Virus record (IMG/VR): IMGVR_UViG_3300035050_000030 | Location: 1 to 55,923 of that record | Length of the DNA: 55,923 nt | Source: a virus | Lineage: Duplodnaviria; Caudoviricetes | Direction: 5' to 3' (one strand) | Shown here: one piece after another, positions 10,268-41,509 of the stretch | How positions within the stretch are numbered: the stretch's first letter is position 1 | How the letters are laid out: the number at the start of each line of letters is the position of its first letter | Position numbers and translations under genes: made by a program | The notes under the pieces: model-generated | Seen by the model: only the letters and a program-made list of their open reading frames with translations | Database searches by the model: none | What the model was told of the DNA's origin: nothing

Positions 10268-11728
10268 ATGGCATCGTTCCCCATAAAATTAGATGGTAGT
10301 GTTGATCCTGCCACCCCTACCGAGTGGAGCGTAACCACTAGGTCAGGTAAGGGTGCGCCGGTTAACGCAGTAGAGCACGATAATAGCATGATCTCGCTTA
10401 GAGAGGCAGTGAACGAACTGAACAAGGATCAAACCGGTCACGCCGAAGCCGCTGACCCCCACACGCAGTACGCGCAAAAAGCGTCTTTGTCCATAACCCC
10501 AGCTGCAAACAAAATACCCCAGGCTGATGCTAATGGATACTTGCACCCCGGCTGGCTGACAGGAGTGCGGACTGGATCGGTAGGATTTGCATACAATATC
10601 AAAACCGACACATTTATTCGCACCGGAGACGCGGCGGATATACCTGTGGGTCAGTTCTGCGGTACAACTGTATCGCCAATTTACCAAAACTTACGTAGGG
10701 TGGTGCTTACAGATGCGGGTGCAGTGTACAAAGAGATTGATTGGCTGGATTTTACCAAACACACAGACGGCACTAGCGTAGCACTCGACGGAAGTAACGG
10801 ACAGATAATGGTGGAGTATCAACCCGCTTATATCCGTACAGGCGTTGTCGGCGATTGGTACTATCTTGAAATATCCCATACACAACTCCCAGGCTTCCAG
10901 CTTCATCCACTATTTGATGGGGTTGACGTAGCATATCAGGGCGCTTATGAAGCAAGCGTGTACAACTCTAAACTCTGCTCAATCGCTAAATCCCCCGCAG
11001 ATGGAACGTCCAACGTATACCCTGTCACTAACCGCACGGGTGATTGGGGCTATACAGGCTTAACCGCACAGGCTACCGACACACTCGCAGAAGCGCGTGG
11101 CGCAGGGTGGCAACAAGCAGACTTCTGGACGAAACACTGGGAGCGGTGCTTGATGCTTGTTGGATGGGCAGGATTTAACTTCCAAAGCATGGTCGGCGAA
11201 GGGCGTACAGGATTAAGCGGTGGGGATTGGGTTAATGACAGCTACATCGGACCTTGTGGATTAGCTGACGCAGTGAGTGGCTACTACGGCAATAGCAATC
11301 AATCTTACTCGTCAATCCTAGGCATTGAAAACCCTTTCGGGCATATATGGGAGCGCGTTGCATCCCTGATAAGCGATTGGGATGTGTACGTTAAAGGGAC
11401 ACCGCCTTTTGATTACTCAGCAACCACCGGATGGGATAGGCTGACTGACTATAGTGGGGTGGGTGTAACACTGCCAAGCAATAGCGGATATGGCGGCACA
11501 CCCCATAGTGGATTAGGCTTTGTACTCCCAGCAGACACTACAGGGTCTTCAAGCTCGCGTTTTAGCGATTATTTCTATCAAAACAGTGGCCTTCGCGTCT
11601 TTCGGGTGGGCGGTGCTGCGAATGATGGGGCGACTGCGGGTCCGTTCTATTGGGTTGCGAGTTTTTCGGCGGCGGTTGCGGCTGCGGATTTCGGCGGGCG
11701 GCTCTGCTTCAAGAAGTTGGCTGCGTAG
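10268..11728 (+). CDS. DGR target: tail fibre/receptor-binding protein with C-terminal CLec-type domain
   Basis: Fibre-like N-terminus (TRSGKGAP, HAEAADPHTQY); GAYEA, GIENPFGHIWE and terminal GG...GGRLCF. Confidence 0.88.
   Translation: MASFPIKLDGSVDPATPTEWSVTTRSGKGAPVNAVEHDNSMISLREAVNELNKDQTGHAEAADPHTQYAQKASLSITPAANKIPQADANGYLHPGWLTGVRTGSVGFAYNIKTDTFIRTGDAADIPVGQFCGTTVSPIYQNLRRVVLTDAGAVYKEIDWLDFTKHTDGTSVALDGSNGQIMVEYQPAYIRTGVVGDWYYLEISHTQLPGFQLHPLFDGVDVAYQGAYEASVYNSKLCSIAKSPADGTSNVYPVTNRTGDWGYTGLTAQATDTLAEARGAGWQQADFWTKHWERCLMLVGWAGFNFQSMVGEGRTGLSGGDWVNDSYIGPCGLADAVSGYYGNSNQSYSSILGIENPFGHIWERVASLISDWDVYVKGTPPFDYSATTGWDRLTDYSGVGVTLPSNSGYGGTPHSGLGFVLPADTTGSSSSRFSDYFYQNSGLRVFRVGGAANDGATAGPFYWVASFSAAVAAADFGGRLCFKKLAA
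11586..11712 (+). repeat. DGR variable repeat (VR)
   Basis: Ungapped match to 11771-11897 with 21 mismatches, none at third codon positions. Confidence 0.92.
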
Positions 11729-11733
11729 CAGCC
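11719..11733 (+). promoter_or_regulatory. DGR target-recognition hairpin downstream of VR
   Basis: GGCTGC-GTA-GCAGCC (GNA triloop) spanning the target stop codon. Confidence 0.7.
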
Positions 11734-11770
11734 CGAACACGGGTTTTGATCTTGGGCTTTCCGGTTCGTT

Positions 11771-11897
11771 GTGGCCTTCGCGTCTTTCTGGTGGGCGGTT
11801 ATGCGAATCATGGGACGTATGCGGGTCCGTTCTTTTGGTATGCGGATTATTCGGCGGCGGGTACGACTGCGAATATCGGCAGGCAGGTCTGCTTCAA
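11771..11897 (+). repeat. DGR template repeat (TR), atypical
   Basis: Between target and RT; 18 A versus 9 A in VR; followed by GCCTTGCCCCTTGGCAAAAA spacer motif. Confidence 0.85.
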
Positions 11898-11994
11898 TGT
11901 AGTGCCCCGGAAAGCCTTGCCCCTTGGCAAAAAAGTAAACGACCATAAAAGTGTGTTAGTAGGATATCCGAACGCTCAGGAGGTCAGAAGCAGC

Positions 11995-12981
11995 ATGAAA
12001 CGCTACGGCGATCTATATAAACATATCTGCACCATGGATAACATTATCTTGGCGCACGAACGCGCTCGCAGGGGGAAGAAGTTTTACACCGAAGTTAAAA
12101 TGGTGGATTCCGCCCCGGATTACTATTTGGGGCAGATACGGAAGATGCTTGTAAACAAGACATTTGTGAACTCTGAATATACCGTGCTTCACAAGCGAGA
12201 AGGCAAGAAAGACAGAGAAATATGGAAACTACCCTATTACCCTGATCGTATTGTTCACCACGCAATCGTTAACATTCTGGAGCCCATTTGGATGCGAACA
12301 TATATCCGCGATACATACGCCGCCCTTCCGGGCCGTGGGATTCACGATGGAGTGCGCCGGGTGAAGAAGGCTCTGGAGGATAAGGAGAGCACGCAGTATT
12401 GCTTGAAAATGGATGTGCGTAAATTCTACCAATCCATAGAAAACGAGGTGCTAAAGCAGGTAGTTAGAAAAAAGGTGAAATGTAAGGATACTCTGTGGCT
12501 TCTTGACACGATCATTGAAAGCGCCCCGGTCGTTCCTATCGGTAACTACACCAGTCAACACTTCGGTAACCTGGTTCTTTCAGACCTCGACCATTGGATA
12601 AAGGAAGAATTGCGTATCAAGCATTACTTCCGCTATTGCGATGATCTGGTGCTTTTGCACCACAGCAAAGAGGAGATTCACGCGATACGCCAGCGGGTTG
12701 CTGACTATTTACGCAGCGAGTTGTTGTTGGATATGAAAGGCAACTGGCAGGTGTTCCCCGTAGGTGTACGAGGGATAGATTTTCTGGGTTATCGCTTCTT
12801 CCACGGCTACACCCTGGTGCGCAAGTCAATCGTGGCAGCGTTCAAGCGGCGCTATCGTAACGGAAATATAAGATCACTGGCCGCATACAACGGATGGTTC
12901 AAGTGGGCAGACACCCACAATCTACAGCATAAATATAACTGGAGGCAAAAATATGAAAGGCTACAGCACGCAACAGCCTGA
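11995..12981 (+). CDS. DGR reverse transcriptase (328 aa)
   Basis: AGGAGG RBS; PDRIVHHA, LKMDVRKFY, PIGNYTSQ (DGR-type GxxxSQ), RYCDD and IDFLGY motifs. Confidence 0.95.
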   Translation: MKRYGDLYKHICTMDNIILAHERARRGKKFYTEVKMVDSAPDYYLGQIRKMLVNKTFVNSEYTVLHKREGKKDREIWKLPYYPDRIVHHAIVNILEPIWMRTYIRDTYAALPGRGIHDGVRRVKKALEDKESTQYCLKMDVRKFYQSIENEVLKQVVRKKVKCKDTLWLLDTIIESAPVVPIGNYTSQHFGNLVLSDLDHWIKEELRIKHYFRYCDDLVLLHHSKEEIHAIRQRVADYLRSELLLDMKGNWQVFPVGVRGIDFLGYRFFHGYTLVRKSIVAAFKRRYRNGNIRSLAAYNGWFKWADTHNLQHKYNWRQKYERLQHATA

Positions 12982-13393
12982 AAACGCCGTACCGCACAAT
13001 GGCGGGTGGCAGTATCGGTTTAACATCGCCCAAGTAACACGCACAGATGATGAAGGCGTGGAGTACATCGAGTGGGAGTACGATTACATCAACTCGGCAA
13101 ACCACCCCAGCACCAGGGCTGCATACGAAGAAATTGTAACCGCCCTGATCCAGAATGAGGTGGATAAGTACAACAAGGCGAACGATGTGCTATTCCGCGA
13201 TGTTCACAGCTGCAAATCCTACGCGGATATGACCGGGTATGAGCACCAGGCCTTTTGCTTAGGTGTGTTTACCTGGAACCTCGACGTATGGCAGGCGGTA
13301 CGCCAAATCCTTGCCGATGTAAAGGCGGGAACCCGACAGGCTCCAACCATTGGTGAATTTCTAACTGAACTGCCGGTGTTCGTCCAAGAATGA
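12953..13393 (+). CDS. Tail-fibre-associated/chaperone-like protein
   Basis: C-terminal SCKSYA...VWQAVRQILADVKAGTRQAPT..FLTELP resembles proteins beside phage fibre genes. Confidence 0.55.
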   Translation: MKGYSTQQPENAVPHNGGWQYRFNIAQVTRTDDEGVEYIEWEYDYINSANHPSTRAAYEEIVTALIQNEVDKYNKANDVLFRDVHSCKSYADMTGYEHQAFCLGVFTWNLDVWQAVRQILADVKAGTRQAPTIGEFLTELPVFVQE

Positions 13394-13683
13394 GGCGCTT
13401 CGCCGACTTTGCAGAACCAAGCTGTCTATTAGACGGTGAAAAGATCAGGATAGACGATGTAGTAAACAGGGAAATTGCAATCCTCAACTACAGTGTGCGC
13501 GAAAGCAGATTCAGTAAGAACAAGTCAGGAAATTATCTGACACTGCAAGTGGAGATCGACAACGAGCGTAGAGTGCTATTCACCGGTTCAGACGTACTCA
13601 TAGAGCAGATGGAGCAATACGGCGACAAAGTACCGTTCATAGCGATAATCAAAAAGGTAGACAAGTTTTACACACTTTCGTGA
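13390..13683 (+). CDS. Small beta-rich protein, candidate DGR accessory factor
   Basis: GEKIRIDDVVNREI, LFTGSDVL and VPF motifs; ATGA overlap with the upstream gene. Confidence 0.55.
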   Translation: MRRFADFAEPSCLLDGEKIRIDDVVNREIAILNYSVRESRFSKNKSGNYLTLQVEIDNERRVLFTGSDVLIEQMEQYGDKVPFIAIIKKVDKFYTLS

Positions 13684-23206: not shown

Positions 23207-26200
23207 TTGGCTGAAAAACAAATTGATTGGGAATCGTTCGGGCGGCAGCTCGAAGAAGCCGACAAAATAGAGGAAAGCGTTTACGGTAATCTGGCAGAAC
23301 AGCGCAGACAACAGACTGACCACTTCGGGGATACCGTAACCGATGTACAGGCAGGTGTATTAGGTGCCGGGCGCGGACTTGTCGGTTTGGCTGATCTTGT
23401 GACCCCCGGACAGCTTGGCAAGGTGGTAGACGAATACACTCCGCTGGATGAATGGGAGGAGCAGGTTGAAAGCCAGTATTCCCCCGCACGTCAGCAGGCC
23501 CAGGCGGACTTTGCCAACGCAGAAGGGATCACCGGCAAGATCGGTGAGATCGTCAAAAACCCCTCGCTTGCCACGTCTGCCGCCATTCAATCTGCACCGT
23601 CGATGCTTGCCGGTGGTGGGGTAGCCAGAGCCGGGGCGAGCCTGTTAAGTAGAGGGACCAAATATCTGCCAAAGGCGGCTGATTACCTGTCCAAACTTAA
23701 AGGGGTGTCTAAGGCCAAGGGAGCCCTGGGGAAAAACGCCGGGGCTATCACGCGCGGTGCTGTCGGTGAGGGGCTTATATCCGCAGGGCAGCAGGCGGAA
23801 GATATACGCAGTCAGACCGACACAGGAGAGACAAGCGCGACTCAGGATATTATCGCAGCCGTTACGGGCGCAGGAACAGCGGCCTTTGGTGCATTAGGCG
23901 GGCGCGTAGCACAGAAGCTAGGTCTTGCCGACCCTGACATTCTTGCAGCGGGTGGCGATGTAGTAGGCGCGGCCGTCAAAAAAGGCATGCCGCGCCGTGC
24001 TGCAGAAACCGCCTTTGTGGAAGGTATTTTCGAGGAACTTCCGCAATCAGCGCAGGAACAGATGTTGAACAACATCGCCCTTGACCGACCTGTTACAGAA
24101 GGCCTAGAAGATGCCGTAGTAATGGGCGCGGCTGCCGGTGGTGTTATGGGCGGTGCTACCGGGATGGTGTTTGGTGGCGGAAAGTCCGGCGACGGCTTTA
24201 CCATAGCGGACGACCCCAAGAACCCCGCAGAAACAAAGGTTCAGCCCGAACAATCCGAAGCCGAAAAGCAATGGGAAAGTGCCTGGGAAGGTGTAGCCGC
24301 ACAGGAGGACGAAAACCAGAAGCGTGCGCGCGTAAAGGATAGCCAGTTTGGCGACGAAATCCCCGGCGAAAACATTATGCAGGTAACCCAACGCCAGGGT
24401 TTAGGGCTTGGCCCCTTGACTGCGCCAGGTAGACTTCTCCCGTATCAGGAGCAGGCAACGCCGGAAGTGCCCCCGGAGCAGGCAAGCGAGCCAATGCCCA
24501 TGAGCATGTCGCCGGAAATGTTTGAACAGACGGGTCGTATGCTTCCCTACAGCTACCGCGACAACATGTCCCCAGAACAGCAGACAGAGCGCACCAACAT
24601 CGCTCTGAGCGAAAGAGACCGCCAACAGCAAAGCCTTACCCGTGAGCAGTTTGCCGAAGCGCAGAAGCGGGTGAGTCAGGTTGACAACTACGCGCAGATG
24701 CGTGAAAACACCATGCGCGATATCCGCAACCTTGAGCGCAAGAAAGACCTGAACAAGTCACAGCGCAACCGCCTGAACAAACTGAGAGAACGCTTCGACC
24801 GTCTCACCCGCGTAGCCCCGGAGAAGCGCACCAACGCCGATAAGGTGACAAGGGAGGGCAACAGGGAGTTTATTCCGGTGATGAAGCGTAAAGAATACCG
24901 CGATGTTCTTCCGGAGTACGTGCGCCAGAACGTTCTCACAAAAGACGAAATGGGTATGGGCACCGTGGTTGACGCCGATGTGCGCGGTCATGCCGGTAAA
25001 CGCACCCCATCAACCAACGCAGCATGGGCACAGGACGCCATCGGTGTAGCTGGATCGGCCAAGGCTTTGCGCAACGCGGTGAATAAAGCTGCCATGGGCG
25101 AACCCCTGGGCGAGAACCAGCGCATAGCCGTAGAGATAGTAGCCGACGCATACAGCCGCGAACGGGTAGCAGCAGGACTTGAAGAAGCAAAACAGCGCCG
25201 CATTGACACACAGAACAATACCCGTATGCTTAAAGCCGCAGAGGGTAAACCGTCAAGCCAGTTCCTCGAAATGGACGAGCAGGAAAGCGCCATTTACGCG
25301 GAGTTTGACGACGAAGCCAAGACCTTGCACGAACTCACCGCGCAGGCATACGATTTAGCAGATGAAAACAGTGTAGATGCCCTGCTAGAATCCGACCTTA
25401 GCGACGGGGAGATCGCCGCAGAACTCTATAACCTGATTGAAAGGAAAACCGATGGGCGACAAAGCCAAGCAGGTGAAACAGTTGATAGACCGGCAGAGAC
25501 AGCGCAAGGGCTTGAAGCAGGGACCGCAGAACGGAACCGGCCCGAAAGCACAGAAGGGGATGTGCGACAAGAAGTAGACCCGGATCAATTTCCTGACGCC
25601 ACGAAAATGATCGAAACGGAACAGGCAACCGAAGCGACTGCACAGCCCACGGCTGACGTAGCAATCGAGGCAGGGCAGGGTCAGCGTAGCGAATCTGCCG
25701 CACCCGACTTTGAGGAAATGGTAAAGGAAGCCGCTCGCTGGAGAGGGGCAGCTCTGAACCATGCCTCCAATCTTGACAAAAAAGGCAAGTTCAAGGTATC
25801 GCAGCGCACTACCAAGGGCGACCTGGACGAATACCTGATGCGCAGGTACGGCATTGACGAAACAGCCGCAAGGGACGTTTCCAATGCGCTTACACAGCGT
25901 AACGTAGAGGATGATAGGACCGCAGACCCGGCAGACTATGAGGGTGAGGCGTGGCAGCAAGTTGGCAAGCCTGTTGCATCTCAGCCACAAGACACAGCTC
26001 CCGTAGCTCCTGACGAAAACCCCGCGCAAGCCGACCTCCCCGCAGAACGCATAAAGTTTGTCGAGCGCAAGGTGGACGAACTCGGCAGCATCGAGGCGGT
26101 AGATAAGAAAGAAGCGTTCCAGAAGGCGGATGAGGGCGAAACCCCGCAACAGGACGCGAAGGGCAACGAGGATTCAGCGCCCGAAGATACCAGCGTAAGC

Positions 26201-29200
26201 GGAGAAGATAACGCACAGACGCTACGACAGGGTGACGGTGAAGCGGTGAATATCGGTGTAGCATACAACCGCCTCATGTCACGCGGAGATATTACCGCCG
26301 AGGAAGGCAAGCGGGTAAATGAATACTTTTCCGGCACAAAAGGCATGGAACGACTTGAAAACCTGGATGGCACCAAACCTGTTAGCGATTTGATGAATGA
26401 GATCAAAGAGGGTGCGCTGGGCAAGAATAAGCCGGAGAAGGACACGCCGGGAAAAACGACCAGGGAGCCCAAAACAAACACCGATAAAAAAGAATCCTCC
26501 GACGCAAAAGGCGCAGAAATAGACGACTTCGGGGAAAAGCTCGAAGGCGCACGCAAGGATATGGGGAACTTCACCACCTCCGAACTTGAGTCCGATAGTG
26601 ATATTGCCGCCTCAACACTGAGCAAAATATGGCCGAAGGCTGAAGTAGACAGGCTGGACGATCCCCAGCAGGCCGCGTTTGCGACCGTACTGCGCGGGAT
26701 GATCCCCAGCAAGCCGCGCAAGAGATTTGCGCTCGCCCGATGGGTTGACTCCGTAAAGACCGCAAAAACCCTCATGGAGCAGTTGGAAAGCAAGGGGTTC
26801 GACGCAGCGTTAAGTCGGATGCGCTCACCAGAGTATCCAGGCCTTGGGGTGTTGGCAGACCATATAGAAGTTATGGCAAAACTGCCGCGTGAATCATGGG
26901 GCAGGATTGACAAGATTGAGGTGCGGCCCAACGCGTACCACCTGGACAAAGACGGCAAGGAAGTCCCCGCACCATTCTCCATGGCGAGGATAGACGGGCG
27001 CAACCATCACTTTGATAGCGTTGTTGAACTGGACGCTGTGGCGGAAAATATAAACGCCCTGCTTACCGAACAACCGCAAGGCACTAGCGATGCAGGCAAA
27101 TTTGAGATTCGCACCCAGGGTGGGCGCTACTTTATCAACCGTAAAGGTGACGGCGAGTACCGCACCCTTGTCAGCTTCGACACTTTCAAAGAGGCAAAGG
27201 ACTTTCGCAAAAACGAAACCGCGAAACTTGCCGAACTGTGGGAGGCGGTCAAAGAGCGTGACAATGTAAAGAAAACCGACGTGCGCCGCAAGGAAAACCG
27301 ACCCCGCACCGGCACCGACCGGCGCAAAGGGCAGGATGTAACCGCTGAACAGTTTGAACAGGCATTTGGCTTCCGTGGGGTGCAGTTCGGTAACTGGGTA
27401 AAGCAAGGTAAGGCCGGAAGGGATCGACAGGGGATGCTCAACCAGGCATATGATGCCCTGCACGATCTGGCCGATATTGTGGGAATCCCGAGCAACGCAA
27501 TATCGTTGAACGGTGAACTAGGCCTTGCGTTCGGAGCACGTGGTAGCGGTAACGCGGCAGCACATTATGAGCCCGGCACTATTGTTATCAACCTGACCAA
27601 GACCAAGGGCGCGGGTTCACTGGCGCACGAATGGTTCCATGCGCTCGACCATTACTTCAGCAGGAAACGCACAGGCGATACCAGCCCGGCAAGCAGAGAA
27701 GAATCATTCATCACCTACAAACCGGAACGCCTGTATGTACTGAAAGACAATGGCAGGGGTTATCATCAGCCGCTAACCATGGCAGAAATCAAAAGACGCC
27801 ATGAAAGACACCCCACGTCCAAGCTGTACAACCCGGAAAACTGGCAGCTTGACCCGAACCACCCCGAAGGCGTGCGCCCTGAAGTTGAGGCGGCGTTTGC
27901 CGACCTGGTTAACCAGTTGAATGAATCCCCCATGAGCCAGCGTGCAAGGGTTTTAGACAAGGGTAAGGCCGATGGATATTGGGGCAGGATCATAGAGCGT
28001 GCGGCAAGAGCGTTTGAAAACTACGTCATTGATAAGATGATGAAGAACGGATACCGCAACGACTATCTTGCGAATGTAACCGAGTACAGCGAGTTTGCTC
28101 GAAATAAAGACCGCTACCCATATCTGAAGGGGGATGAACTGGAGCCGGTAGCCAATGCGTTTGATAACCTGTTTGGCACAATAGAAACGCGCGAGACCGA
28201 CCGGGGTGTGGAAATATTTGAAGGCCCGGAAACCTATGGTACAATTCAAGAAGGAGGTTCGAGCAATGACCAACTATCCTTCGACTTTAACGGAAAAGAT
28301 ACTAACAACCGAGATACCGCCGATGGGAACATACGACCCTCTGCCGGGGTATCGCTATTGTGGCGGAAGGGTTCGCTCCCGATCAAAAGGAGCATCGCGG
28401 CTGACCTTGAGGCGCGACTTGATACAATACAGACCGGCACATTCAAGAGCGGCATTACCCAAATAAACACCCCAAGTGATGCTGCTCACGTCCTTGCGCC
28501 GCTACGCAAAAGCGGTGTTGAGAAGTTCCATGTTCTTGTGCTCGACAAAGACAAGGCCCCCCGCGCGATTATCGACGTATCGACCGGCACGGTAAATTCT
28601 TCGCTTGTTCATCCTCGTGAAGTTGTTGGCCCTGCACTCGACATTCCGGGCGCAGCTTCAGTTTATTTCGGCCATAACCACCCATCAGGTGTGGCGGAGC
28701 CAAGCAGGGAGGACACGGCTATTACCGACAGGCTACAAGACCTGTTTAGCGGCACAGGGGTTGAGTATGCGGGGCATGTAATATTTGGAGAAAATGGCGA
28801 ATACCGCGCCCTTGGTGATGCAGCAAACCAAAAGGCAGCTCCTGGCGTAAGAAAAAGCGATGTGCCGGTGATGCAACGCAAGATTGTCCGTCGCTCTCAA
28901 GCAAGAGGCGTTACCGGCCCGGACGACGTTGCAAAGTATCTGCGCGGCAACGGGGTCCTCCTTCTTGACAGCAAAAACAAGCCGGTAGCCTGGGTAGAAA
29001 TGACCGATGCGGAAATGGGTAAATTGCGAACGGGCGGTACCGGCTCCGGTTCTGCTCTCCTTTCCCGCGCCGCCTCGCAGACCGGTGCAGCCGGGATAAT
29101 CGTATCATCCCAAGCCCCCAACGCATGGAAGAACGTAGCACGCTATGCCGACAAAGCAGGCATGCGCATGCTTGACGCTGTGGTTGAGGGGCAAGGCTCA

Positions 29201-32200
29201 GTGGTGGCAAAAGGAGGATCGGTGCAACAGAGCGGCCCCTTCTACTCCAAGAGCACAGAGAAAACCAACAACACCCCCGCCCAGGTAGAAAAAGAAGCAA
29301 AGTCCTTCCTCGGCAAAGGCTTCGAGAAGATGAAGCAAGCCGGAACGCTGAAGGTGGTGCAGAGTGTGGAGGATTTGCCAAAGGGTGGCTTGAAATCCAC
29401 TGTTAGCGCAAAAGAAAAGGCTCGTCGGGACGGTTATGATGTAGACAATATATACTACCATAGAACGTATGCAGGAGAGAGTTTGCCCGAAGCGGTTCGC
29501 CCCAGGGATGTGCTAGACAACTCTAATTTCTACGGTGGAATTTTTGCTACTACCGATCCACGGGGGTCATCCGGGCCGCAAACCCACGGTGACTTAGGTG
29601 CGTATGTGGCCCGCAACGCACTCAAGCATGGCGACGATGTAGATGTTAAAAGGGTGGAGGATGCTGTCCGTGCGGTAAGCAGAGAAACGCTGACAGCTGA
29701 AGAAATGGAGACCGTCTATGATGTTGTAGTTGATGATGTTAATTTCACAAAAACCGACATCTCGGAAGAACGCTGGCGTGACATATTGGGGGAATATGAC
29801 GAAATATACCCAATAGACGCGTTTCAACAGGTGTTCCGGGGCGAAGTTGCGCGCGAAATGGGTTTTGATGTTATTGACACCTACGATGAGCATGGTGTGA
29901 GTCAGATGTTGCTCGGTGGTGGTGATGTGCGCTTCCTTGGGCGTGTAGATAGTGAAAGCACCCTGTTTTCCCGCTCCGGCGACATAGCAGGCATGTACCA
30001 GGATGGCACCGTTCATCTGGTAGCCGACCAGATAGCCAAGGGCGAAACCGCTGGACTTCTGAAACACGAAGGCTTACACCTCCTGCTGCGCAACGATCCC
30101 ACCTTTAAGAAGCGCAAGGGCGAGATCATGCGCCAGTTCAAAAACCTCAAGAATACGCCGAAGGTGAAAGAGGCGTATGCCGTAGTACCCAAGGAGACCG
30201 ACCAGAACGTGCGCGACGAGGAAGCACTGGCGTACCTGGTGCAGAACCACAAAGAGCACAGCCTGGTTAAGCGGATCATCTCAGCGGTTAAGGCGTGGAT
30301 GTTCCGCAACGGTATTCCGGTAACAAAGCTGACCGAAGGTGACTTGACCGCATTAGCGGCACAGGGGGTTAAGCGGTTCAGCAAGGCACAGACGATGGAG
30401 CAGGCGTTAGCGCAAGCGGACGCAATGGTTGGCAGTGAGCAACCCGTATTCTCCCGCAAGCGCACCAAGGGCACCGAAGCGCAGGAGAAAGCCCTGCGCG
30501 AGACACAGGCGGTCCCTAAAGATGAAATGTCCTGGCATGAGCGCGTGCAGGACTGGATGAAGGGGATCAGCGAAAACTTCAATAAAGAGAACATCCGCCA
30601 ATCGGTATTTGACGAATATGCCAGTGTAGAGAGAGCGGAAAAGCAGAAATACGGCAAACTTCTGGACGCTGACTTTTCCCCATCCAAGGCGTTACGTGCT
30701 ACCAAAAACCTTGATTCAGTTATGGCGGCAATCTTCATGAAGGGTAAGATACGCCTCAACAAAAACGGCTGGACCGAACTTGTAGACCCGGAGAACGGCA
30801 AAGGGTTCCTGAAGATATTTGAACCCTTGTTCCAGTATGAGGGCGGATCACTCACCCGCTTGTGGGAAGGCTACGCCGGGGCGCGCCGAGCTAGGGAGTT
30901 GAAAGCGCAGAACCGCGAGAATAACTACAGCGACGAATATATAAGGGAATTGCTGACGCTCGGAGATGAGTACGACGGCACCAACGGCAAGCCGGACTTT
31001 AAGGCGATATTTGACGAATACCAGGCGTTCAACAAATCCATCCTGGACTTTGCCGAAGCTGCTGGCGTGATTGACCCCGAAACCCGCAAGTTCTGGGAAA
31101 GCAACGACTATATCCCGATGTATCGCATCCTGGACGCCATGGCTGAAGCTGTGGGGCCGAGCAAAAAAGGCGGCGTGGCAAACCAGACAAGCGGAATACG
31201 CAAGCTCGAAGGCGGTGTAAATAAACACGGCGGCGTACTGGAAAACATGGTAATGAACATGACCAAGCTGGTGGACGCCAGTTATAAGAATATCGGTGCT
31301 GAACGCGCCATTGACCTGGGGCTTGAAACCGGGCATGTTGACGAAGTTGCTGGATCAGCTGCGAATATAGATGAAGAGCAAGTCAGGGAGTATGTCAACG
31401 ATGTAGGCCTCGACTACGACGCTATGGACAAGAATCAACAGGAAGCATGGCGCAAGACCCTGGGTAAATTCAGCCCTGAAGGTGGGGATATTGTCCATAT
31501 TCTCAAAGACGGGAAGCGCAAGTATTACCGCGTGAACGACCCCCTATTTCTGCGCAGCTTGCAGAGCGTAGGCGGCACTGATAGCAATGTATTGGAACTA
31601 TTCCGCATGTCTAAAAGCCTGTTGACTAACACGGTTACGGCTGACCCTTCGTTTATGTTGGCGAACTTTCTGCGTGACTCCATAAGCACGTGGATGGTTA
31701 CAGGCACAAAAATGATACCGGTACTCTCCGGGATAAAGCAGGGCATGAAGGCGTGGAACGAGGACACGATGCTCTGGCAGATGATGGCAGCCGGTGCCGG
31801 GGGTGGGCGCTTCTACAACACCCGCTCCAAAGATGTGCGCAAGATGGCGAACCAGATCGAAAAGAAAATGAAAGATAAAAACTTCTCCGAGACGGTCCTG
31901 GATTCGCCGGGCAAAATATGGCAGTTCTGGCAGAAGATGGGCAACGCCTCCGAGAATGCAAACCGTCTGGCAGTCATGCAGGATTACCTTAACCGGGGAT
32001 ACACCCTGACAGAGGCCGCGTATCAGGCAATGGATGTAATGAACTTCACCCGCCATGGTGACGGGGTGATAATGAAGTTTATGATGGATACGGTGCCCTT
32101 CCTGAACGCACGTATTCAGGGCTTGGATCGCTTATATCGGGGGGCAAAGGAAAACCCCGGCACATTTGCTATACGGGGTGCAATGATGGGTATGGCCTCC

Positions 32201-33112
32201 CTCGCGCTATATATGGCGAATAAAGACCGGGAAGAGTACGACGATCTTCCTGAATGGGACAAAGATATTTACTGGCACTTTTTTACCCCTGTGGGACATT
32301 ATCGCTTTCCCAAATCATTTGAAGTTGGCGCAATCTTTGGTACACTTCCAGAACGTATTGCTGAAGCGATAAGCAAGGGCGAAACAAGATTCCTCGCAGA
32401 CGCAACAAAGCGAATGGTAATGGATACATTCGCCTTTGACCCCATGCCTCAGTTGGTAAGGCCGGCATACGAGATAGCCATTGACCGCAACCGCTTCTTT
32501 GATATGCCGATTGTAGGTTTTGACAAGTACCTCGAACCCGAAGCGCAGTACAACACCCGCACGCCGGTAAGTTATGTTAAACTCGCAGAAGCTATGCCGG
32601 ATATAGCGCCGGACTTTCTCAGAAGCCCGAAGCAGCTTGAACACCTCGTGCGGGGGTACACATCTTCTGTCGGTTCAATCATGTTCTGGATGGCTGACCG
32701 GATGATGGAGCAGGCGGGGATGATCGACAAGAAAGAAACCCTGCAACTCACGGAAGCGCCGGTAATAAAACGATTCTTCCGTGAGCACGACCCCAGAAGT
32801 GTGAAGTATTCCAGCTACTTCTACGATATGGTCAACGAGGCGGATCAGATATACAAGACCGTCAACAAGTACATGAAGTACGGACGCCGGGATGATGCCC
32901 GCGAACTCATAGACGACAACCGCGAACTGTTGCAAAAGCGTAAAGGCTTGAACCGTTACAAGAGGCAAATATCCGAAATCAACCGCACAATGGATAAGAT
33001 AGCCCGCTCAAGCCTTGCACCGGCAATAAAGGACGCACGCAACCGTAAGCTACAGCAGCAGAAAAACCGGCTGCAAAAGAGAGCCGTAGAAATCTACGGG
33101 GAAGGATTCTGA
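23207..33112 (+). CDS. Giant polyvalent (injected) protein: LPD5/LPD1-like zincin region, RadC/JAB, ART-like, metallopeptidase, LPD38-like C-terminus
   Basis: IDDFGEKLEGARKD, AHEWFHALD, HPREV...HNHPSG...PSRED, YYHRT, KHEGLH, LPEWDKDIYWHF...PKSFEVG. Confidence 0.85.
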   Translation: MAEKQIDWESFGRQLEEADKIEESVYGNLAEQRRQQTDHFGDTVTDVQAGVLGAGRGLVGLADLVTPGQLGKVVDEYTPLDEWEEQVESQYSPARQQAQADFANAEGITGKIGEIVKNPSLATSAAIQSAPSMLAGGGVARAGASLLSRGTKYLPKAADYLSKLKGVSKAKGALGKNAGAITRGAVGEGLISAGQQAEDIRSQTDTGETSATQDIIAAVTGAGTAAFGALGGRVAQKLGLADPDILAAGGDVVGAAVKKGMPRRAAETAFVEGIFEELPQSAQEQMLNNIALDRPVTEGLEDAVVMGAAAGGVMGGATGMVFGGGKSGDGFTIADDPKNPAETKVQPEQSEAEKQWESAWEGVAAQEDENQKRARVKDSQFGDEIPGENIMQVTQRQGLGLGPLTAPGRLLPYQEQATPEVPPEQASEPMPMSMSPEMFEQTGRMLPYSYRDNMSPEQQTERTNIALSERDRQQQSLTREQFAEAQKRVSQVDNYAQMRENTMRDIRNLERKKDLNKSQRNRLNKLRERFDRLTRVAPEKRTNADKVTREGNREFIPVMKRKEYRDVLPEYVRQNVLTKDEMGMGTVVDADVRGHAGKRTPSTNAAWAQDAIGVAGSAKALRNAVNKAAMGEPLGENQRIAVEIVADAYSRERVAAGLEEAKQRRIDTQNNTRMLKAAEGKPSSQFLEMDEQESAIYAEFDDEAKTLHELTAQAYDLADENSVDALLESDLSDGEIAAELYNLIERKTDGRQSQAGETVDRPAETAQGLEAGTAERNRPESTEGDVRQEVDPDQFPDATKMIETEQATEATAQPTADVAIEAGQGQRSESAAPDFEEMVKEAARWRGAALNHASNLDKKGKFKVSQRTTKGDLDEYLMRRYGIDETAARDVSNALTQRNVEDDRTADPADYEGEAWQQVGKPVASQPQDTAPVAPDENPAQADLPAERIKFVERKVDELGSIEAVDKKEAFQKADEGETPQQDAKGNEDSAPEDTSVSGEDNAQTLRQGDGEAVNIGVAYNRLMSRGDITAEEGKRVNEYFSGTKGMERLENLDGTKPVSDLMNEIKEGALGKNKPEKDTPGKTTREPKTNTDKKESSDAKGAEIDDFGEKLEGARKDMGNFTTSELESDSDIAASTLSKIWPKAEVDRLDDPQQAAFATVLRGMIPSKPRKRFALARWVDSVKTAKTLMEQLESKGFDAALSRMRSPEYPGLGVLADHIEVMAKLPRESWGRIDKIEVRPNAYHLDKDGKEVPAPFSMARIDGRNHHFDSVVELDAVAENINALLTEQPQGTSDAGKFEIRTQGGRYFINRKGDGEYRTLVSFDTFKEAKDFRKNETAKLAELWEAVKERDNVKKTDVRRKENRPRTGTDRRKGQDVTAEQFEQAFGFRGVQFGNWVKQGKAGRDRQGMLNQAYDALHDLADIVGIPSNAISLNGELGLAFGARGSGNAAAHYEPGTIVINLTKTKGAGSLAHEWFHALDHYFSRKRTGDTSPASREESFITYKPERLYVLKDNGRGYHQPLTMAEIKRRHERHPTSKLYNPENWQLDPNHPEGVRPEVEAAFADLVNQLNESPMSQRARVLDKGKADGYWGRIIERAARAFENYVIDKMMKNGYRNDYLANVTEYSEFARNKDRYPYLKGDELEPVANAFDNLFGTIETRETDRGVEIFEGPETYGTIQEGGSSNDQLSFDFNGKDTNNRDTADGNIRPSAGVSLLWRKGSLPIKRSIAADLEARLDTIQTGTFKSGITQINTPSDAAHVLAPLRKSGVEKFHVLVLDKDKAPRAIIDVSTGTVNSSLVHPREVVGPALDIPGAASVYFGHNHPSGVAEPSREDTAITDRLQDLFSGTGVEYAGHVIFGENGEYRALGDAANQKAAPGVRKSDVPVMQRKIVRRSQARGVTGPDDVAKYLRGNGVLLLDSKNKPVAWVEMTDAEMGKLRTGGTGSGSALLSRAASQTGAAGIIVSSQAPNAWKNVARYADKAGMRMLDAVVEGQGSVVAKGGSVQQSGPFYSKSTEKTNNTPAQVEKEAKSFLGKGFEKMKQAGTLKVVQSVEDLPKGGLKSTVSAKEKARRDGYDVDNIYYHRTYAGESLPEAVRPRDVLDNSNFYGGIFATTDPRGSSGPQTHGDLGAYVARNALKHGDDVDVKRVEDAVRAVSRETLTAEEMETVYDVVVDDVNFTKTDISEERWRDILGEYDEIYPIDAFQQVFRGEVAREMGFDVIDTYDEHGVSQMLLGGGDVRFLGRVDSESTLFSRSGDIAGMYQDGTVHLVADQIAKGETAGLLKHEGLHLLLRNDPTFKKRKGEIMRQFKNLKNTPKVKEAYAVVPKETDQNVRDEEALAYLVQNHKEHSLVKRIISAVKAWMFRNGIPVTKLTEGDLTALAAQGVKRFSKAQTMEQALAQADAMVGSEQPVFSRKRTKGTEAQEKALRETQAVPKDEMSWHERVQDWMKGISENFNKENIRQSVFDEYASVERAEKQKYGKLLDADFSPSKALRATKNLDSVMAAIFMKGKIRLNKNGWTELVDPENGKGFLKIFEPLFQYEGGSLTRLWEGYAGARRARELKAQNRENNYSDEYIRELLTLGDEYDGTNGKPDFKAIFDEYQAFNKSILDFAEAAGVIDPETRKFWESNDYIPMYRILDAMAEAVGPSKKGGVANQTSGIRKLEGGVNKHGGVLENMVMNMTKLVDASYKNIGAERAIDLGLETGHVDEVAGSAANIDEEQVREYVNDVGLDYDAMDKNQQEAWRKTLGKFSPEGGDIVHILKDGKRKYYRVNDPLFLRSLQSVGGTDSNVLELFRMSKSLLTNTVTADPSFMLANFLRDSISTWMVTGTKMIPVLSGIKQGMKAWNEDTMLWQMMAAGAGGGRFYNTRSKDVRKMANQIEKKMKDKNFSETVLDSPGKIWQFWQKMGNASENANRLAVMQDYLNRGYTLTEAAYQAMDVMNFTRHGDGVIMKFMMDTVPFLNARIQGLDRLYRGAKENPGTFAIRGAMMGMASLALYMANKDREEYDDLPEWDKDIYWHFFTPVGHYRFPKSFEVGAIFGTLPERIAEAISKGETRFLADATKRMVMDTFAFDPMPQLVRPAYEIAIDRNRFFDMPIVGFDKYLEPEAQYNTRTPVSYVKLAEAMPDIAPDFLRSPKQLEHLVRGYTSSVGSIMFWMADRMMEQAGMIDKKETLQLTEAPVIKRFFREHDPRSVKYSSYFYDMVNEADQIYKTVNKYMKYGRRDDARELIDDNRELLQKRKGLNRYKRQISEINRTMDKIARSSLAPAIKDARNRKLQQQKNRLQKRAVEIYGEGF

Positions 33113-35838: not shown

Positions 35839-36262
35839 TAGCATTGTCACATATAAGAGCGGCTACAAGCACCAGAACGATAAGCTGAGGGTGTACCAGA
35901 CACGCATATGCCCACCCCAGGTGGTAGAATCCCGTTTTATCACCCTGAACACGGACGGACGCCTGTTCATAAACGGTGGGTATGCCTGGGACGGCCCCAC
36001 CGGCGTGCCGGAATGGCTGGTGAAACGTTGGATAAAGTGGCTCATGCGCCCAAGCCTGATCCATGACGCTCTGTGTCAACTCGCCCGCGAAGGTCTGCTA
36101 TCCCCCAAATACGCGGAGCAGATAGATATTGAGTTTAAGCTGGCGTGCCACCAAGACGCGCGTTGGAAGTGGCTTGGCAATACGGCTTACTTCTTTGTGC
36201 GCAAGTTTGGCAGCTTTGCCACCGACCCCGCAAACAAACGGCCCATCCTCACGGCCCCTTAA
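35816..36262 (+). CDS. DUF1353-like phage protein
   Basis: GYAWDGPT and SLIHDALCQL motifs. Confidence 0.7.
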   Translation: MTKMQKIDSIVTYKSGYKHQNDKLRVYQTRICPPQVVESRFITLNTDGRLFINGGYAWDGPTGVPEWLVKRWIKWLMRPSLIHDALCQLAREGLLSPKYAEQIDIEFKLACHQDARWKWLGNTAYFFVRKFGSFATDPANKRPILTAP

Positions 36263-36739
36263 TGCCATTGCCCCGGTAGCCCCTCCTTCTACCGGGGATT
36301 TTTTGACACCACATCCCGCAATCACATCGTCAACATCTTCCTTTCCCTGTTCGCTCAATCTTCTATAAGACAGAATCACCCACGCCTCGCGCTCGTCAAT
36401 CTCCCCTACGTAGGGTTGCGCCCCCGTATCAGTGATATTCGGAGCGTCTACGGATGTTTCGCGCACGATTGCCGACCCGGGGGACTCAAGCAGGCCCCTG
36501 CGCCTTTCCGTTGACCCGATTCCATCTCTAAGCCAAACTAGGTTTACATTTAGAGTGTCGGCCAGTTTACCTAAAACTATTTTAGATGGGTTCTTTTTTT
36601 CTCCAGACTCAAGCTGACCGATGTGAGCCGCTGAAACATCTACCTTATCCGCAACAGCCTTCTTGCTGAGACCTAGTTCAAGCCTTCTCTTTTTCACTCT
36701 TTCGCTAAACTGAGTTGTTTTTTTCGGTTGACATAGCAA
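36098..36739 (-). CDS. XRE-family HTH repressor (start uncertain, no S24 peptidase domain)
   Basis: FSERVKKRRLELGLSKKAVADKVDVSAAHIGQLESG...WLRDGIG; divergent from the cro-like gene. Confidence 0.8.
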   Translation of the reverse strand: MLCQPKKTTQFSERVKKRRLELGLSKKAVADKVDVSAAHIGQLESGEKKNPSKIVLGKLADTLNVNLVWLRDGIGSTERRRGLLESPGSAIVRETSVDAPNITDTGAQPYVGEIDEREAWVILSYRRLSEQGKEDVDDVIAGCGVKKSPVEGGATGAMALRGREDGPFVCGVGGKAAKLAHKEVSRIAKPLPTRVLVARQLKLNIYLLRVFGG

Positions 36740-36756
36740 TAAACCTGGTTTAGTTT
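36728..36756 (+). promoter_or_regulatory. Rightward lytic promoter with overlapping palindromic operator
   Basis: TTGACA-N17-TAGTTT; TAAACC-T-GGTTTA at 36740-36752. Confidence 0.65.
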
Positions 36757-36833
36757 TAGTTTCACAAGGGCGCACAGGGGCGCAACAGCGAATATTTAAC
36801 GATAAACAATACCACAAAAAGGAGGTGAACAAC

Positions 36834-37028
36834 ATGGAGCAAAAAGCAACGCTACTCAGCATCAGAGAGGCAGCGGAATACCTCGGAGTGTCAAAAAGCA
36901 CTTTGCGGATCAAACTCAACAACGGGCAATGGAAGATACCCAGCGTCGAGTTTGGCACTGACTCACTCCGCAGATTCGACGTTCGCGATCTGGACAGGTT
37001 TATCGATCGCTACAAGGTGAGCGCGTAA
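36834..37028 (+). CDS. Cro-position HTH_17/Xis-like DNA-binding protein
   Basis: LLSIREAAEYLGVSKSTL; AAGGAGGT RBS. Confidence 0.8.
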   Translation: MEQKATLLSIREAAEYLGVSKSTLRIKLNNGQWKIPSVEFGTDSLRRFDVRDLDRFIDRYKVSA

Positions 37029-38625: not shown

Positions 38626-39390
38626 ATGAGCGAAACAGCCACTACATACGAACTGGAAGATGCCCGAAAGGAAAGGGTGGTGCAACCAATCACGCCAATG
38701 ACCCTGTTGCAATCCGCCCAAAACACCAACGCAAGCATCGAGCAGATGCAGCAACTTATGGAGCTGCAGATCCGCTGGGAGCAAAACGAGGCACGTAAAG
38801 CATACAACGAAGCGATAGCCGCGTTCAAGTCTGAAAACGTGCATATCTATAAGGATAGCGTTGTAGATTTCACATCCTCCAAGGGGCGCACCAACTACGC
38901 ACACGCGAACTTGGCAAGCATCGTTTCGGCGGTAACACCTCTTTTGTCCAAATACGGTCTGTCTCACAGCTGGGAAACCCAGCAGGACGGAAACACCGTG
39001 CAGGTGTCGTGCAAAATAGCGCACCGCCTCGGACATTCTGAAAAAATCTCCCTGTACGCAGCACCGGATAACAGCGGCAACAAAAACAGCATCCAGGCCA
39101 TCGGATCTACCGTTACCTACCTGCAGCGGTACACCTTGGTATCCGCGCTCGGCTTGGCAGCACACGAGCAAGACGACGATGGCCGGATGGGGCAGCAATC
39201 ACCCACCAATAGCGCGCCCGCCAATGATGGCACCTTGCCTGACGAGCGATTTAAGCAACTCAGGCCCGCATGGGAAAGACTCATAAGGTCCGGGGATAAA
39301 TCCGTGCAGGACATTATCAACGCTGCGAAGGGTAAGGGCATTGTTATGACGAATGAACAGGTACAACAACTTGAAAGGATTAAGCGATGA
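38626..39390 (+). CDS. ERF-family single-strand annealing protein
   Basis: YAHANL and IQAIGSTVTYLQRYTLVSALGL...DDDG motifs. Confidence 0.9.
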   Translation: MSETATTYELEDARKERVVQPITPMTLLQSAQNTNASIEQMQQLMELQIRWEQNEARKAYNEAIAAFKSENVHIYKDSVVDFTSSKGRTNYAHANLASIVSAVTPLLSKYGLSHSWETQQDGNTVQVSCKIAHRLGHSEKISLYAAPDNSGNKNSIQAIGSTVTYLQRYTLVSALGLAAHEQDDDGRMGQQSPTNSAPANDGTLPDERFKQLRPAWERLIRSGDKSVQDIINAAKGKGIVMTNEQVQQLERIKR

Positions 39391-41048
39391 AAAACATGCG
39401 TATAGAGAATTGCATACAGGGATCACAAGAATGGCACGCACTGCGCGCTAACCATTTCACCGCGTCCGATGCGGCCGCAATGATGGGGGAGAGTAAATAC
39501 AAAAGCCGGAATCAACTCCTGGAAGAGAAGGCTACCGGCAAAACCCCCGAAGTATCCGAAGCAAAGCAGAGGATATTTGACCAGGGGCATGAGGCGGAAG
39601 CTGCAGCACGCGACATCCTGGAGATGGAGACGCTTGAAAGTTACCCACCGCTCGTGGCCACTCGCGAGATTGAAGGTCTGCCACTGTTGGCTTCGTTCGA
39701 CGGTTGCAGCCTGGGAAGCCGCGGACTGTGGGAGCACAAACTATGGAATGAAACCCTGGCGGAGAATGTGCGCAACAAAACCCTTGAACCTGCTTATTAC
39801 TGGCAACTGGAACACCAACTCTTAGTTGCCGGGGATGAAGCGCAGCACGTGATTTTCACCGTCTCAGACGGAACCATGGAAAAGCGCGAAACCATGGTTT
39901 ATGAATCTGTGCCTGAACGGCGCAAAAAGCTTATTGCAGGGTGGAAACAGTTTGCAGAGGATTTGAAAAACTACAAGCCCAAAGCCAAGCCGGAGCAGGT
40001 TGAGGGCGCGGACGCTGACGGTTTCCCCCTGGTGGAATACGAAGTACACGGCACCGCCATTTATTCCAACCTGCGCGATATTCTCCCGATTGTGAAGGAA
40101 CGCGCAGAGGAAGAAATGGCCCGTCCGCTGGAAACGGATCAGGACTTTGCGGATAAGGAAAAGCAGGTAAAGGCGGTCAAGGCAGCGCGTAAGCACCTGA
40201 AGGAAACAACGGAAGATGTAAAGGGTGAGTTTGTGTCCTTCGCTGAGTTTTCTTCCTTGGCGGCGGAAATGGACAGTGTGCTGCAGAAGCTTCAGAGCCA
40301 CGGCGAGAAGGCCGTTAAAGATGCCAAGGCGCAGAAAAAGCGCGAGATTGAGCAGAGTGCAGACGAGGCCCTGCGCGAGCATATCGCAAGCGTGAACGAA
40401 AAGATTGCCCCCCTGCACATTGAAAACATCATCGACATTATCCCGGATTGGGGCACAGCGATGAAAAACAAGCGCACCCTTGAATCCCTGCAGAACGCGG
40501 TAGACGAAGAGTTGAGCCGGGTGCAGGTGGGGATTAAGCAAACATTCAAACTCGTTTGGGAAAACCTCGAATACTTCAACAGCCAGAAGGACTACCACTT
40601 TCTGTTCAACGACCTGGAGCGGATCGTCAACCAGCAGTCCGAAGGCTTTAAGGCCCTGGTGCAGCAGCGTATCGCGGACTACGAAGCGGAGCAGAAGGAA
40701 AAGCGCGAACGTGAGGAGAGGGAGCGCAAGGAGCGCGAAGCGGCAGAGGTAAAGCGCAGGGAAGAGGCTGAAGCGCGGCGCAAGGAACGGGAAGAAGCGG
40801 ATGCCAAGTGCAGGGAAGAAGATCGTGCGCAGGAGGTTAAGACCGAACCGGAGGAGGCCCATGAAGCATCGGCAACGAATGCACAAACGCCTGCTGAAGT
40901 GCCAATACCTGAGAAGGTTTCTACGGGCGAAGCGTACACGCTCATTGATGAAATAGAGGCATGGGCGCAGCGACACCAGTTGGAACCATCGTCCTTGCGG
41001 GAGCTGTTCCAGATTATCCGCAGGCATTATGCGAAGGAGGCAGCTTAA
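39387..41048 (+). CDS. YqaJ/lambda-exonuclease-family protein with coiled-coil tail
   Basis: QGSQEWHALR, TASDAAAMMG, LASFDG, WEHK and YYWQLEHQL motifs. Confidence 0.9.
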   Translation: MKNMRIENCIQGSQEWHALRANHFTASDAAAMMGESKYKSRNQLLEEKATGKTPEVSEAKQRIFDQGHEAEAAARDILEMETLESYPPLVATREIEGLPLLASFDGCSLGSRGLWEHKLWNETLAENVRNKTLEPAYYWQLEHQLLVAGDEAQHVIFTVSDGTMEKRETMVYESVPERRKKLIAGWKQFAEDLKNYKPKAKPEQVEGADADGFPLVEYEVHGTAIYSNLRDILPIVKERAEEEMARPLETDQDFADKEKQVKAVKAARKHLKETTEDVKGEFVSFAEFSSLAAEMDSVLQKLQSHGEKAVKDAKAQKKREIEQSADEALREHIASVNEKIAPLHIENIIDIIPDWGTAMKNKRTLESLQNAVDEELSRVQVGIKQTFKLVWENLEYFNSQKDYHFLFNDLERIVNQQSEGFKALVQQRIADYEAEQKEKREREERERKEREAAEVKRREEAEARRKEREEADAKCREEDRAQEVKTEPEEAHEASATNAQTPAEVPIPEKVSTGEAYTLIDEIEAWAQRHQLEPSSLRELFQIIRRHYAKEAA

Positions 41049-41509
41049 TGGAAAAACGCTGCACGAAATGCGGGGAGGCTAGGCCGCTGGAGGAGTTTTG
41101 TGTCGATAAAACAATAAAGAGCGGACGCTCCTCTCGGTGTAAAGAGTGTCGCAGGGAATATCTCCGGGAATGGAGGGAGAAAAATCGCGGTAAATTGTTA
41201 GAACGTTCGCGCCAATGGGTAGCGGAAAACCCTGAAAAAAGGCGGGAGACCGTCCGAAAATCGGACGCGAAAAACGCTAAAAAAAGGCGGGAAAAGGCCC
41301 GCGAAAGGTATGCGGAAAACCGGGAAAGACTGAACTTGGACACTTTGAAGAGAGGAGCCAGGAACCGTAAAAACCTATCTGACGTATATGTGCGCCAAGT
41401 AATGACAAGAAGGTCCCCACTGCTACATGCAGATATCCCCCAGGAACTTGTGGAAGCTAAACGGGTTGAACTTAAAATCAAACGCTATCTAAGGGAGCAA
41501 AGCAAATGA
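41048..41509 (+). CDS. Zinc-finger basic protein (HNH-associated N-domain type)
   Basis: KRCTKCGE...SRCKEC. Confidence 0.65.
   Translation: MEKRCTKCGEARPLEEFCVDKTIKSGRSSRCKECRREYLREWREKNRGKLLERSRQWVAENPEKRRETVRKSDAKNAKKRREKARERYAENRERLNLDTLKRGARNRKNLSDVYVRQVMTRRSPLLHADIPQELVEAKRVELKIKRYLREQSK

Follow-up and report, generated by a model that had tools for sequence, protein, structure and literature searches.

A phage diversity-generating retroelement whose template repeat appears to bear adenine mutagenesis of its own

The 55,923-bp stretch analyzed here (hereafter the window) is an IMG/VR virus record (IMGVR_UViG_3300035050_000030), rated 98% complete, and it carries a diversity-generating retroelement (DGR) in which a variable repeat (VR) within a tail-protein gene is accompanied by a template repeat (TR) and a reverse transcriptase (RT) gene. 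We found that this TR has lost adenines, and specifically adenines, relative to all of its close relatives and that its sequence is reproducible; by descent the element is a DGR, but its present state is non-canonical and new. We favor the explanation, at a probability of roughly three in four, that TR took up an adenine-mutagenized copy of the repeat by recombination, the copy being either complementary DNA (cDNA) or a diversified VR allele, and that no rewriting of VR has followed; what is said below of donor, route and timing is inferred. An initial annotation of this DNA had proposed that the template itself bears the signature of adenine mutagenesis, and the TRs of relatives now bear this out.

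A repeat search and column comparison placed a 127-nt direct repeat at 11586-11712 (VR) and 11771-11897 (TR), ungapped at an offset of 185 and identical at 106/127 positions (83%; blastn E 1.7e-34); these and all other features given here lie on the + strand unless marked otherwise. The layout is ordinary for a phage tail-protein DGR (target with VR, TR, RT), with VR inside the open reading frame (ORF) at 10268-11728 and a non-coding TR separated from the RT start by 97 nt, a spacing shared by relatives, whose TRs are orthologous to it in position and flanks. Twelve of the 21 mismatches fall at a TR adenine (57%) and nine at a TR non-adenine (five T, three G and one C), an adenine share below the 75% or more by which DGRs are recognized. 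At three of these nine the A sits on the VR side (VR 11633, 11649 and 11660, where TR has T, T and G). Read in the target frame (start 10268), the mismatches occupy first (12) and second (9) codon positions and never the third. The initial annotation had described the same ungapped alignment, the same division of mismatches, the same three VR adenines and the same mismatch-free third positions, and every codon pair that it listed was correct. TR contains 18 adenines in 127 nt (0.14), and the longest exact run common to VR and TR is 18 nt. No third copy of the repeat was found by blastn (word size 7) over the window, which is the phage's own 98%-complete record.

The closest cassettes readable in ungapped register are L115 (from a Deltaproteobacteria metagenome-assembled genome; RT 71% identical), L002 (68%), L116 (67%) and L003 (65%), and the TR of L115 has a 5′ flank identical to that of the window and a homologous 3′ spacer. 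Twenty-two columns are A in all four of these TRs. The window keeps 12 and has lost 10, to T (4), G (4) or C (2): 11793 G, 11800 T, 11809 C, 11818 T, 11834 T, 11839 T, 11845 G, 11860 G, 11861 G and 11867 C. The stretch of loss thus runs from 11793 to 11867, where 10 of the 18 conserved A columns are gone, and at 11797 (G) and 11848 (T) the window TR also departs from an A found in three of the four relatives. These losses account for most of the non-adenine mismatches, since seven of the nine (TR 11800, 11809, 11818, 11834, 11839, 11845 and 11861) are columns with A in all four relatives, and among the 100 non-A columns where VR and TR match only 3 are of this kind (Fisher one-sided p 1.4e-7). 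TR differences in which the relative has A are far more numerous than those in which the window has A (14/2 for L115, 15/3 for L116, 12/3 for L002 and 14/4 for L003), while the same counts between relatives are near even (3/3, 2/5, 3/6, 5/6, 3/5 and 1/3). From this lopsidedness and the losses at conserved adenines, it follows that the window lineage lost adenines, to all three other bases. The TR is therefore not the invariant source of a one-way transfer, adenine being absent from 10/22 conserved columns asymmetrically with respect to all four relatives. Judged from the bases gained, loss to T, G and C reads as the signature of DGR mutagenesis and not of deamination. Deaminase-type editing was ruled out because the changes run to T, G and C, and reciprocal exchange between VR and TR because VR is not A-rich.

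Measured against an A-rich template inferred from the four relatives, adenine-to-any-base changes in VR and/or TR fit 19 of the 21 mismatches. The single ancestral AAT-rich template suggested by the initial annotation accordingly stands for seven of the nine non-adenine mismatches and fails for two, the codon pairs CTG/CGG and GTC/CTC. In the first, VR 11604 is G opposite TR 11789 T, and all four relatives have T in both repeats, which points to a VR-side T>G change (Leu to Arg). In the second, TR 11887 is G opposite VR 11702 C, with C in the TR and VR of all four relatives, which points to a TR-side C>G change within the end that resembles an initiation-of-mutagenic-homing sequence (IMH*). 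Comparison with relatives also upholds the earlier claim that the present VR cannot be derived from the present TR. Separately, at the columns of 11793 and 11797 the relatives' TRs have A (4/4 and 3/4) and their VRs have G (3/4 and 4/4); two IMH* columns follow the same TR-A/VR-G rule, and a similar pattern was seen by eye. Either only G is tolerated in VR at such columns or they lie outside the transferred segment.

We then placed the window in its RT clade, gathering 121 loci with homologous RTs (122 with the window). Forty-five of the 122 had no usable TR-VR pair, mostly being cut contigs, and 65 distinct ungapped pairs beside an RT remained. The core comparison omits 12 columns at the start and 25 at the end, which are affected by alignment edges and by the differences between IMH and IMH*. 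In this core, 8 of the window's 17 mismatches face a non-adenine, making it the only outlier among the 65 pairs; the next-ranked locus, L102 (a 1.4x contig), has 3/14, 13 others have one or two such mismatches, and 50 of the 64 show no such mismatch. Adenine is also scarcer in the window TR than in any other of the 65 (0.14 versus 0.21-0.35 in the other 64), and all 64 other pairs are adenine-biased. Single columns with a VR A opposite a TR non-A were seen in L102:1615-1923, L097:1975-2358, L099:278-604 and L120. Such columns hint at minor template adenine loss in a few relatives, with L102 (1.4x) open to sequence errors. No relative with more than 71% RT identity was present in viral_contigs, metagenome_contigs or genome_contigs, blastn against the phage collection gave no match, and an exact 29-nt TR-flank pattern was absent from viral_contigs.

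A run from another study, X3, contains 0.66 of the sampled words and offers a view of a related population. Three of its records (4, 8 and 10) flank the region on both sides with 0 differences from the window over 107, 115 and 438 nt, and a second, more divergent strain is present in the same run. Across TR, record 6 (410 nt, 11698-12107, 218.7x) is the single full-depth contig; its depth is approximately that of both strains summed (230.8x just downstream), and it differs from the window at 14 positions. An A-rich template modeled on the relatives predicts 13-14 TR differences from the window, and the tallies of change kinds in X3 (7 T>A, 11 G>A, 2 C>A and 1 G>C) can contain those predicted (5, 5, 2 and 1). 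VR alleles in X3 include A at 11663, C at 11676 and the codons CTT GGT at 11660-11665; the window TR can template none of these, and AAT AAT could. Together, these observations are indirect but concordant evidence that an A-rich template is the normal state of this phage and that the window carries a recent derivative.

Depth in X3 falls over VR (11594-11701) to 74-132, against about 180-220 in the flanks, with many low-depth contigs, and this looks like an actively diversifying population. No VR allele following the present TR was found among the X3 contigs or in a protein search with the C-terminal 199 aa of the target, which returned no close VR alleles; that search gave only 4 matches among predicted proteins (59-63% identity). 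TR read in the RT frame gave one unrelated partial match among predicted proteins. The main contigs of a further data set, X7, leave 11823-11867 almost uncovered, and we drew no inference from them.

The order of events can be read from VR itself. VR keeps A at three sites where TR has T, T and G, and therefore VR predates the TR change and has escaped rewriting from that time on; four more former-A columns have a VR base that differs from that of TR. A change in TR gains a phenotype only once it is copied into VR, and selection on the phage's own tail protein therefore could not have favored those TR changes that are missing from VR. A 10:1 bias toward A sites then calls for a mutational cause. 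We propose that TR was recently overwritten, over at least 11793-11867, by its own copy after that copy had passed through the element's adenine-specific mutagenesis. The donor would be a mutagenized cDNA or a diversified VR allele, and it would have entered TR by homology and not by normal IMH-directed homing, plausibly assisted by the phage's genes for Erf, RecE and single-strand DNA-binding protein (SSB). The present VR would have been made from the older, A-rich template, such that VR and TR disagree at former adenine positions.

Three routes into TR were considered: (a) annealing of cDNA into TR, (b) gene conversion from a VR allele and (c) mis-targeted homing at IMH*. Route (b) is mildly favored by the G at 11793 and 11797 in the window TR, which is the VR state of the relatives. 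Route (c) is mildly disfavored, as the three 3′-most conserved mutable adenines are kept (p ~0.085) and IMH* has not become IMH-like. Between cDNA and a VR allele as donor the present evidence does not separate, none of it being decisive. If the template is still used, the next homing event would fix parts of codons (T, C, T, T, T, G and G at the seven sites), narrowing the library.

Several points weigh against overwriting by a mutagenized copy. Two of the nine non-adenine mismatches, VR 11604 and TR 11887, are unexplained by adenine loss, and the RTs of even the nearest relatives with a readable TR are no more than 65-71% identical to that of the window. An internal patch is not significant, because only three mutable conserved A columns lie 3′ of 11867 and the chance that all would be kept is the p of ~0.085 given above; the 5′ patch ending before a TR-like 3′ end that the initial annotation had described is therefore statistically insecure. 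IMH* is no more IMH-like than in relatives and carries one extra difference, and there is thus no visible reason for TR to have served as recipient. The part given to Erf is suggested by analogy with engineered systems. Our evidence consists of contigs and not reads, among which minor A-rich TR molecules could stay hidden, and that the 14 differences of record 6 lie in TR is something we infer from identical flanks, the predicted count and the change tallies.

The rival that survives best, though we consider it unlikely, supposes that TR adenines were lost gradually by point mutation in another strain, with or without selection for a narrower library, and that VR-TR recombination then brought that TR together with a VR whose own template had been A-rich. 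The available part of a theory preprint (10.64898/2026.02.18.706561) predicts TR adenine loss in stable environments, and single TR codons in which a lost A and VR are in step do exist (TAT in L005 and AGT in L003). At least two strains co-circulate in X3, and the phage has recombination genes. However, the TR shows at least 10 A-site changes against one non-A change, with flanks apparently unchanged relative to X3 (an indirect comparison), whereas relatives differ among themselves without skew at A and non-A columns, and this course of events requires a donor strain that has not been seen.

It is also quite improbable that VR is served in trans by a functional TR located in the host, in a helper phage or in a co-infecting relative, with 11771-11897 left as a disused pseudo-template. 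A present VR that is not derivable from the present TR would fit such an arrangement, and DGR donor functions can be supplied in trans, according to excerpts of Wu 2018. Yet no third copy lies in the 98%-complete genome, where the initial annotation's suggestion of a true TR in trans finds no footing, 11771-11897 is orthologous in position and flanks to the relatives' TRs, and neither the RT nor the RNA structure of the spacer is disrupted. A TR in trans would, moreover, leave the adenine-specificity of the decay unexplained.

Slightly less probable again is an assembly chimera in which VR-variant reads were threaded into the TR position, another concern of the initial annotation. In its favor, the record derives from a metagenome, the related X3 populations have a hypervariable VR, and the depth of the two data sets that cover the region, X1 and X2, is low (6.8x and 11.1x). 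Contigs from both (5,105 and 16,378 nt), made by a different assembler, nevertheless span 11000-12600 as single pieces with 0 differences from the window, and no second contig from either data set aligned there; X1 and X2 are both possibly the window's source and hence not independent. Six changed sites also lie close to bases specific to TR: 11793, 11797 and 11800 are within 31 nt of the TR-unique base 11770, and 11860, 11861 and 11867 are equally near to bases that only IMH* has (11881-11887). The word length of the Logan assembly is presumably 31, and a word-graph assembler therefore cannot have spliced sites at that distance or less from VR reads. With an 18-nt limit on exact VR-TR identity, a chimeric origin of the TR sequence is unlikely.

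The least credible alternative is an RT that misincorporates at T, G and C besides A, leaving TR intact and VR more widely mutated. Non-A-to-N differences are reported in 23% of DGRs, up to 11 per target, in excerpts of PMC5758913, an engineered BPP-1 system is reported to place 10.9% of its mutations at T, and L007 has T changes between mutated As. The wider base specificity that the initial annotation had raised is nevertheless disfavored by the relatives' TRs and the 65-pair survey. Non-A mismatches coincide with the very columns at which the window TR departs from the TRs of all four relatives (p 1.4e-7), scaffold codons and third codon positions are free of mismatches, relatives with 65-71% identical RTs are canonical, and the window TR is itself A-poor.

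The target of the element is a 486-aa tail protein (10268-11728; phrog_5302 'tail protein', E 3.7e-55) with VR at the 3′ end of its gene, which belongs to the structural module and has an SU10-type adaptor and an internal virion protein encoded on either side. The protein had no sequence match in Pfam, NCBIfam or the PDB. An Atlas model of residues 280-486 matched viral tail-fiber clusters with template modeling (TM) scores of 0.85-0.90 by query; one such cluster has Mtd_N in 55% of its members, and a feature match led to a cluster with FGE-sulfatase in 29%, all of these being leads only as to a C-type-lectin or Mtd-like fold that would display VR.

At the 3′ end of VR, 11693-11712 is identical in 5/5 VRs (window, L115, L116, L002 and L003), with upstream columns varying, and we label it a candidate IMH by analogy to BPP-1 as described in part of PMC3240598. 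The corresponding end of TR, 11878-11897, is the candidate IMH*, where TR and VR differ at 11881 (A/G), 11885 (A/G) and 11887 (G/C); the first two differences recur in relatives, and the G at 11887 is unique to the window. Directly readable after VR, and not after TR, is a GC-rich inverted repeat (11719-11733) with a 6-bp stem and a 3-nt loop that contains the stop codon. One stem pair covaries, being T-A in the window and L115 and C-G in L116 and L003, and folding of the inverted repeat in a 58-nt context was no better than that of shuffles (z -0.71). At the level of sequence, then, both the IMH/IMH* pair and the inverted repeat of a DGR are in place. The loop (11725-11727) is 3 nt in the window and 4 nt in L115, L116 and L003. 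This change in length switches the stop from TAA to TAG with the protein unaltered, and X3 contigs have no insertion there. A 3-nt loop as the cause of failed homing was rejected, since X3 lacks the insertion and its VR is diverse nonetheless.

The spacer between TR and RT (11898-11994), presumed to be the 3′ part of the DGR RNA, contains a conserved hairpin at 11917-11930. RNAalifold on 10 relatives predicted 15 spacer pairs, 10 with compensatory changes, and a 5-bp hairpin in 10/10. A long-range helix is predicted between the IMH* region and the bases just before the RT start; in it, the consensus C at the 11887 column pairs with a G near the RT start, and the G of the window opposite that G is predicted to break the pair.

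The RT gene (11995-12981) is intact (Pfam RVT_1, E 7.6e-15, above the cut-off), and its open frame contains YCDD and IGNYTSQ, which we take to be DGR-type RT motifs. NCBIfam has no DGR-specific model, and matches to other RT families fell below their cut-offs. The nearest RT, that of L115 (71% identical), belongs to a locus whose TR-VR pair is canonical, and the repeats of the window thus lie beside an RT of DGR lineage. The accessory protein Avd (PF05635) had no match in six frames of the window or in four relatives' records, namely those behind L011, L018, L015 and L041 (14-83% complete). Downstream of RT lies an ORF of 97 aa (13390-13683) that tblastn recovered in 46 of the 121 relatives' loci, usually right after RT (27-69% identity in the alignment; e.g. 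L048:3896-4186, L115:1955-2245 and L049:1224-1505). The protein has no Pfam, PHROG or NCBIfam match. AlphaFold (pLDDT 89.6) renders it as a small, beta-rich domain that includes a single long helix, and the folds nearest to it in BFVD belong to viral RT-domain proteins (E 8e-8 and 1e-5); Foldseek against the PDB gave none at E <= 0.001, the weak rows being mostly OB-fold proteins. Going by these models, the domain may be fused to RT in other phages, and the 97-aa protein is a candidate accessory subunit in a DGR clade without Avd.

The recombination module (38626-43245), part of a block of replication and recombination genes, comprises an Erf-like single-strand DNA annealing protein (38626-39390; phrog_155, E 1.2e-34), a RecE-like recombination exonuclease (39387-41048; phrog_7655, E 1.3e-140) and an SSB (42640-43245; phrog_44, E 6.6e-50), together with an endonuclease VII-like protein and an HNH endonuclease. 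Otherwise the genome is unremarkable for a tailed phage and encodes terminase, portal, major head protein and endolysin. Further genes are a 3,301-aa ORF (23207-33112) that matches several PHROGs of unknown function and weakly resembles the DarB-like antirestriction family, a repressor-like gene (36098-36958, − strand), and a transposase gene near the right end of the record (53464-54603; phrog_506, E 2.8e-145).

An invariant template is what lets a DGR rewrite its target repeatedly. A natural template that is half erased, lying beside a VR made from an older template, means that transfer in nature does not always keep to the one-way rule, and it gives a concrete route by which DGR libraries may shrink, shift or die. 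The case also suggests how the rare DGRs with non-adenine mismatches may have arisen, an account that can be tested because sister templates should have A at those columns, and self-mutagenesis, if that reading is true, would explain a share of the 'non-adenine' DGRs found in surveys. It further links a nuisance of engineered DGRs, template self-mutagenesis by annealing proteins, to phage biology, and suggests that natural DGRs must be protected against the recombination genes of their own host genome. As a tentative and rather doubtful extension, DGR phages with Erf or RecT might occasionally anneal mutagenized cDNA into the template, as a natural counterpart of the engineered process, with bursts of erosion or reprogramming and with A-rich templates kept only by lineage selection or recombination. 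We found template self-mutagenesis reported only for engineered systems, and no report in the literature of a natural DGR with TR adenine loss, a search on which the survey supplements (Wu 2018 Table S1; Roux Table 4/Fig. S4) may bear.

In the BPP-1 DGR (mtd-avd-TR-brt), transfer is one-way and TR is unchanged, as stated in excerpts of PMC5703328 and PMC3240598. The window resembles it in having VR at the 3′ end of a phage tail or receptor-binding gene, TR just upstream of RT, and variable positions at codon positions 1 and 2 of AAY-type codons. It differs in lacking Avd (PF05635), in having the conserved 97-aa ORF after RT, and in a TR that is not invariant, with 12/21 mismatches facing adenine. 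Replacing IMH* with IMH reportedly made the TR of BPP-1 variable; in contrast, the IMH* of the window has not become IMH-like.

In Escherichia coli carrying a DGR with the annealing protein CspRecT, cDNA recombines into TR and erases adenines, mostly in mid-TR, according to the accessible portions of three preprints (10.1101/2025.03.24.644984, 10.64898/2026.07.21.739853 and 10.64898/2026.06.12.731847). The same partial sources for this engineered system describe TR changes that favor G/T over C, as well as RT-independent recombination between TR and VR. The likeness to this system, DGRec (BPP-1 RT/Avd with CspRecT), is twofold: TR adenines are mutated in both, those of the window to T (4), G (4) and C (2) within 11793-11867, and both have an annealing protein, that encoded by the window phage being of the Erf type. 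Unlike the window, which is one natural end state, DGRec is a synthetic plasmid system that needs an added annealing protein and a MutL mutant.

Surveys of natural DGRs supply the remaining comparison. Excerpts of Wu et al. 2018 (NAR) give non-A-to-N differences in 86 of 372 DGRs, with more than one in 24 of them and a maximum of 11, and part of the preprint of Roux et al. 2020 lists 7 clusters with less than 75% adenine mismatches among more than 30,000 DGRs. In those portions, both surveys attribute non-adenine differences to RT infidelity, integration errors or unrelated mutation. The window shares with these atypical DGRs its non-adenine TR-VR differences, at an adenine share of 57%; unlike in them, sister TRs here show that it was the template that lost adenines.

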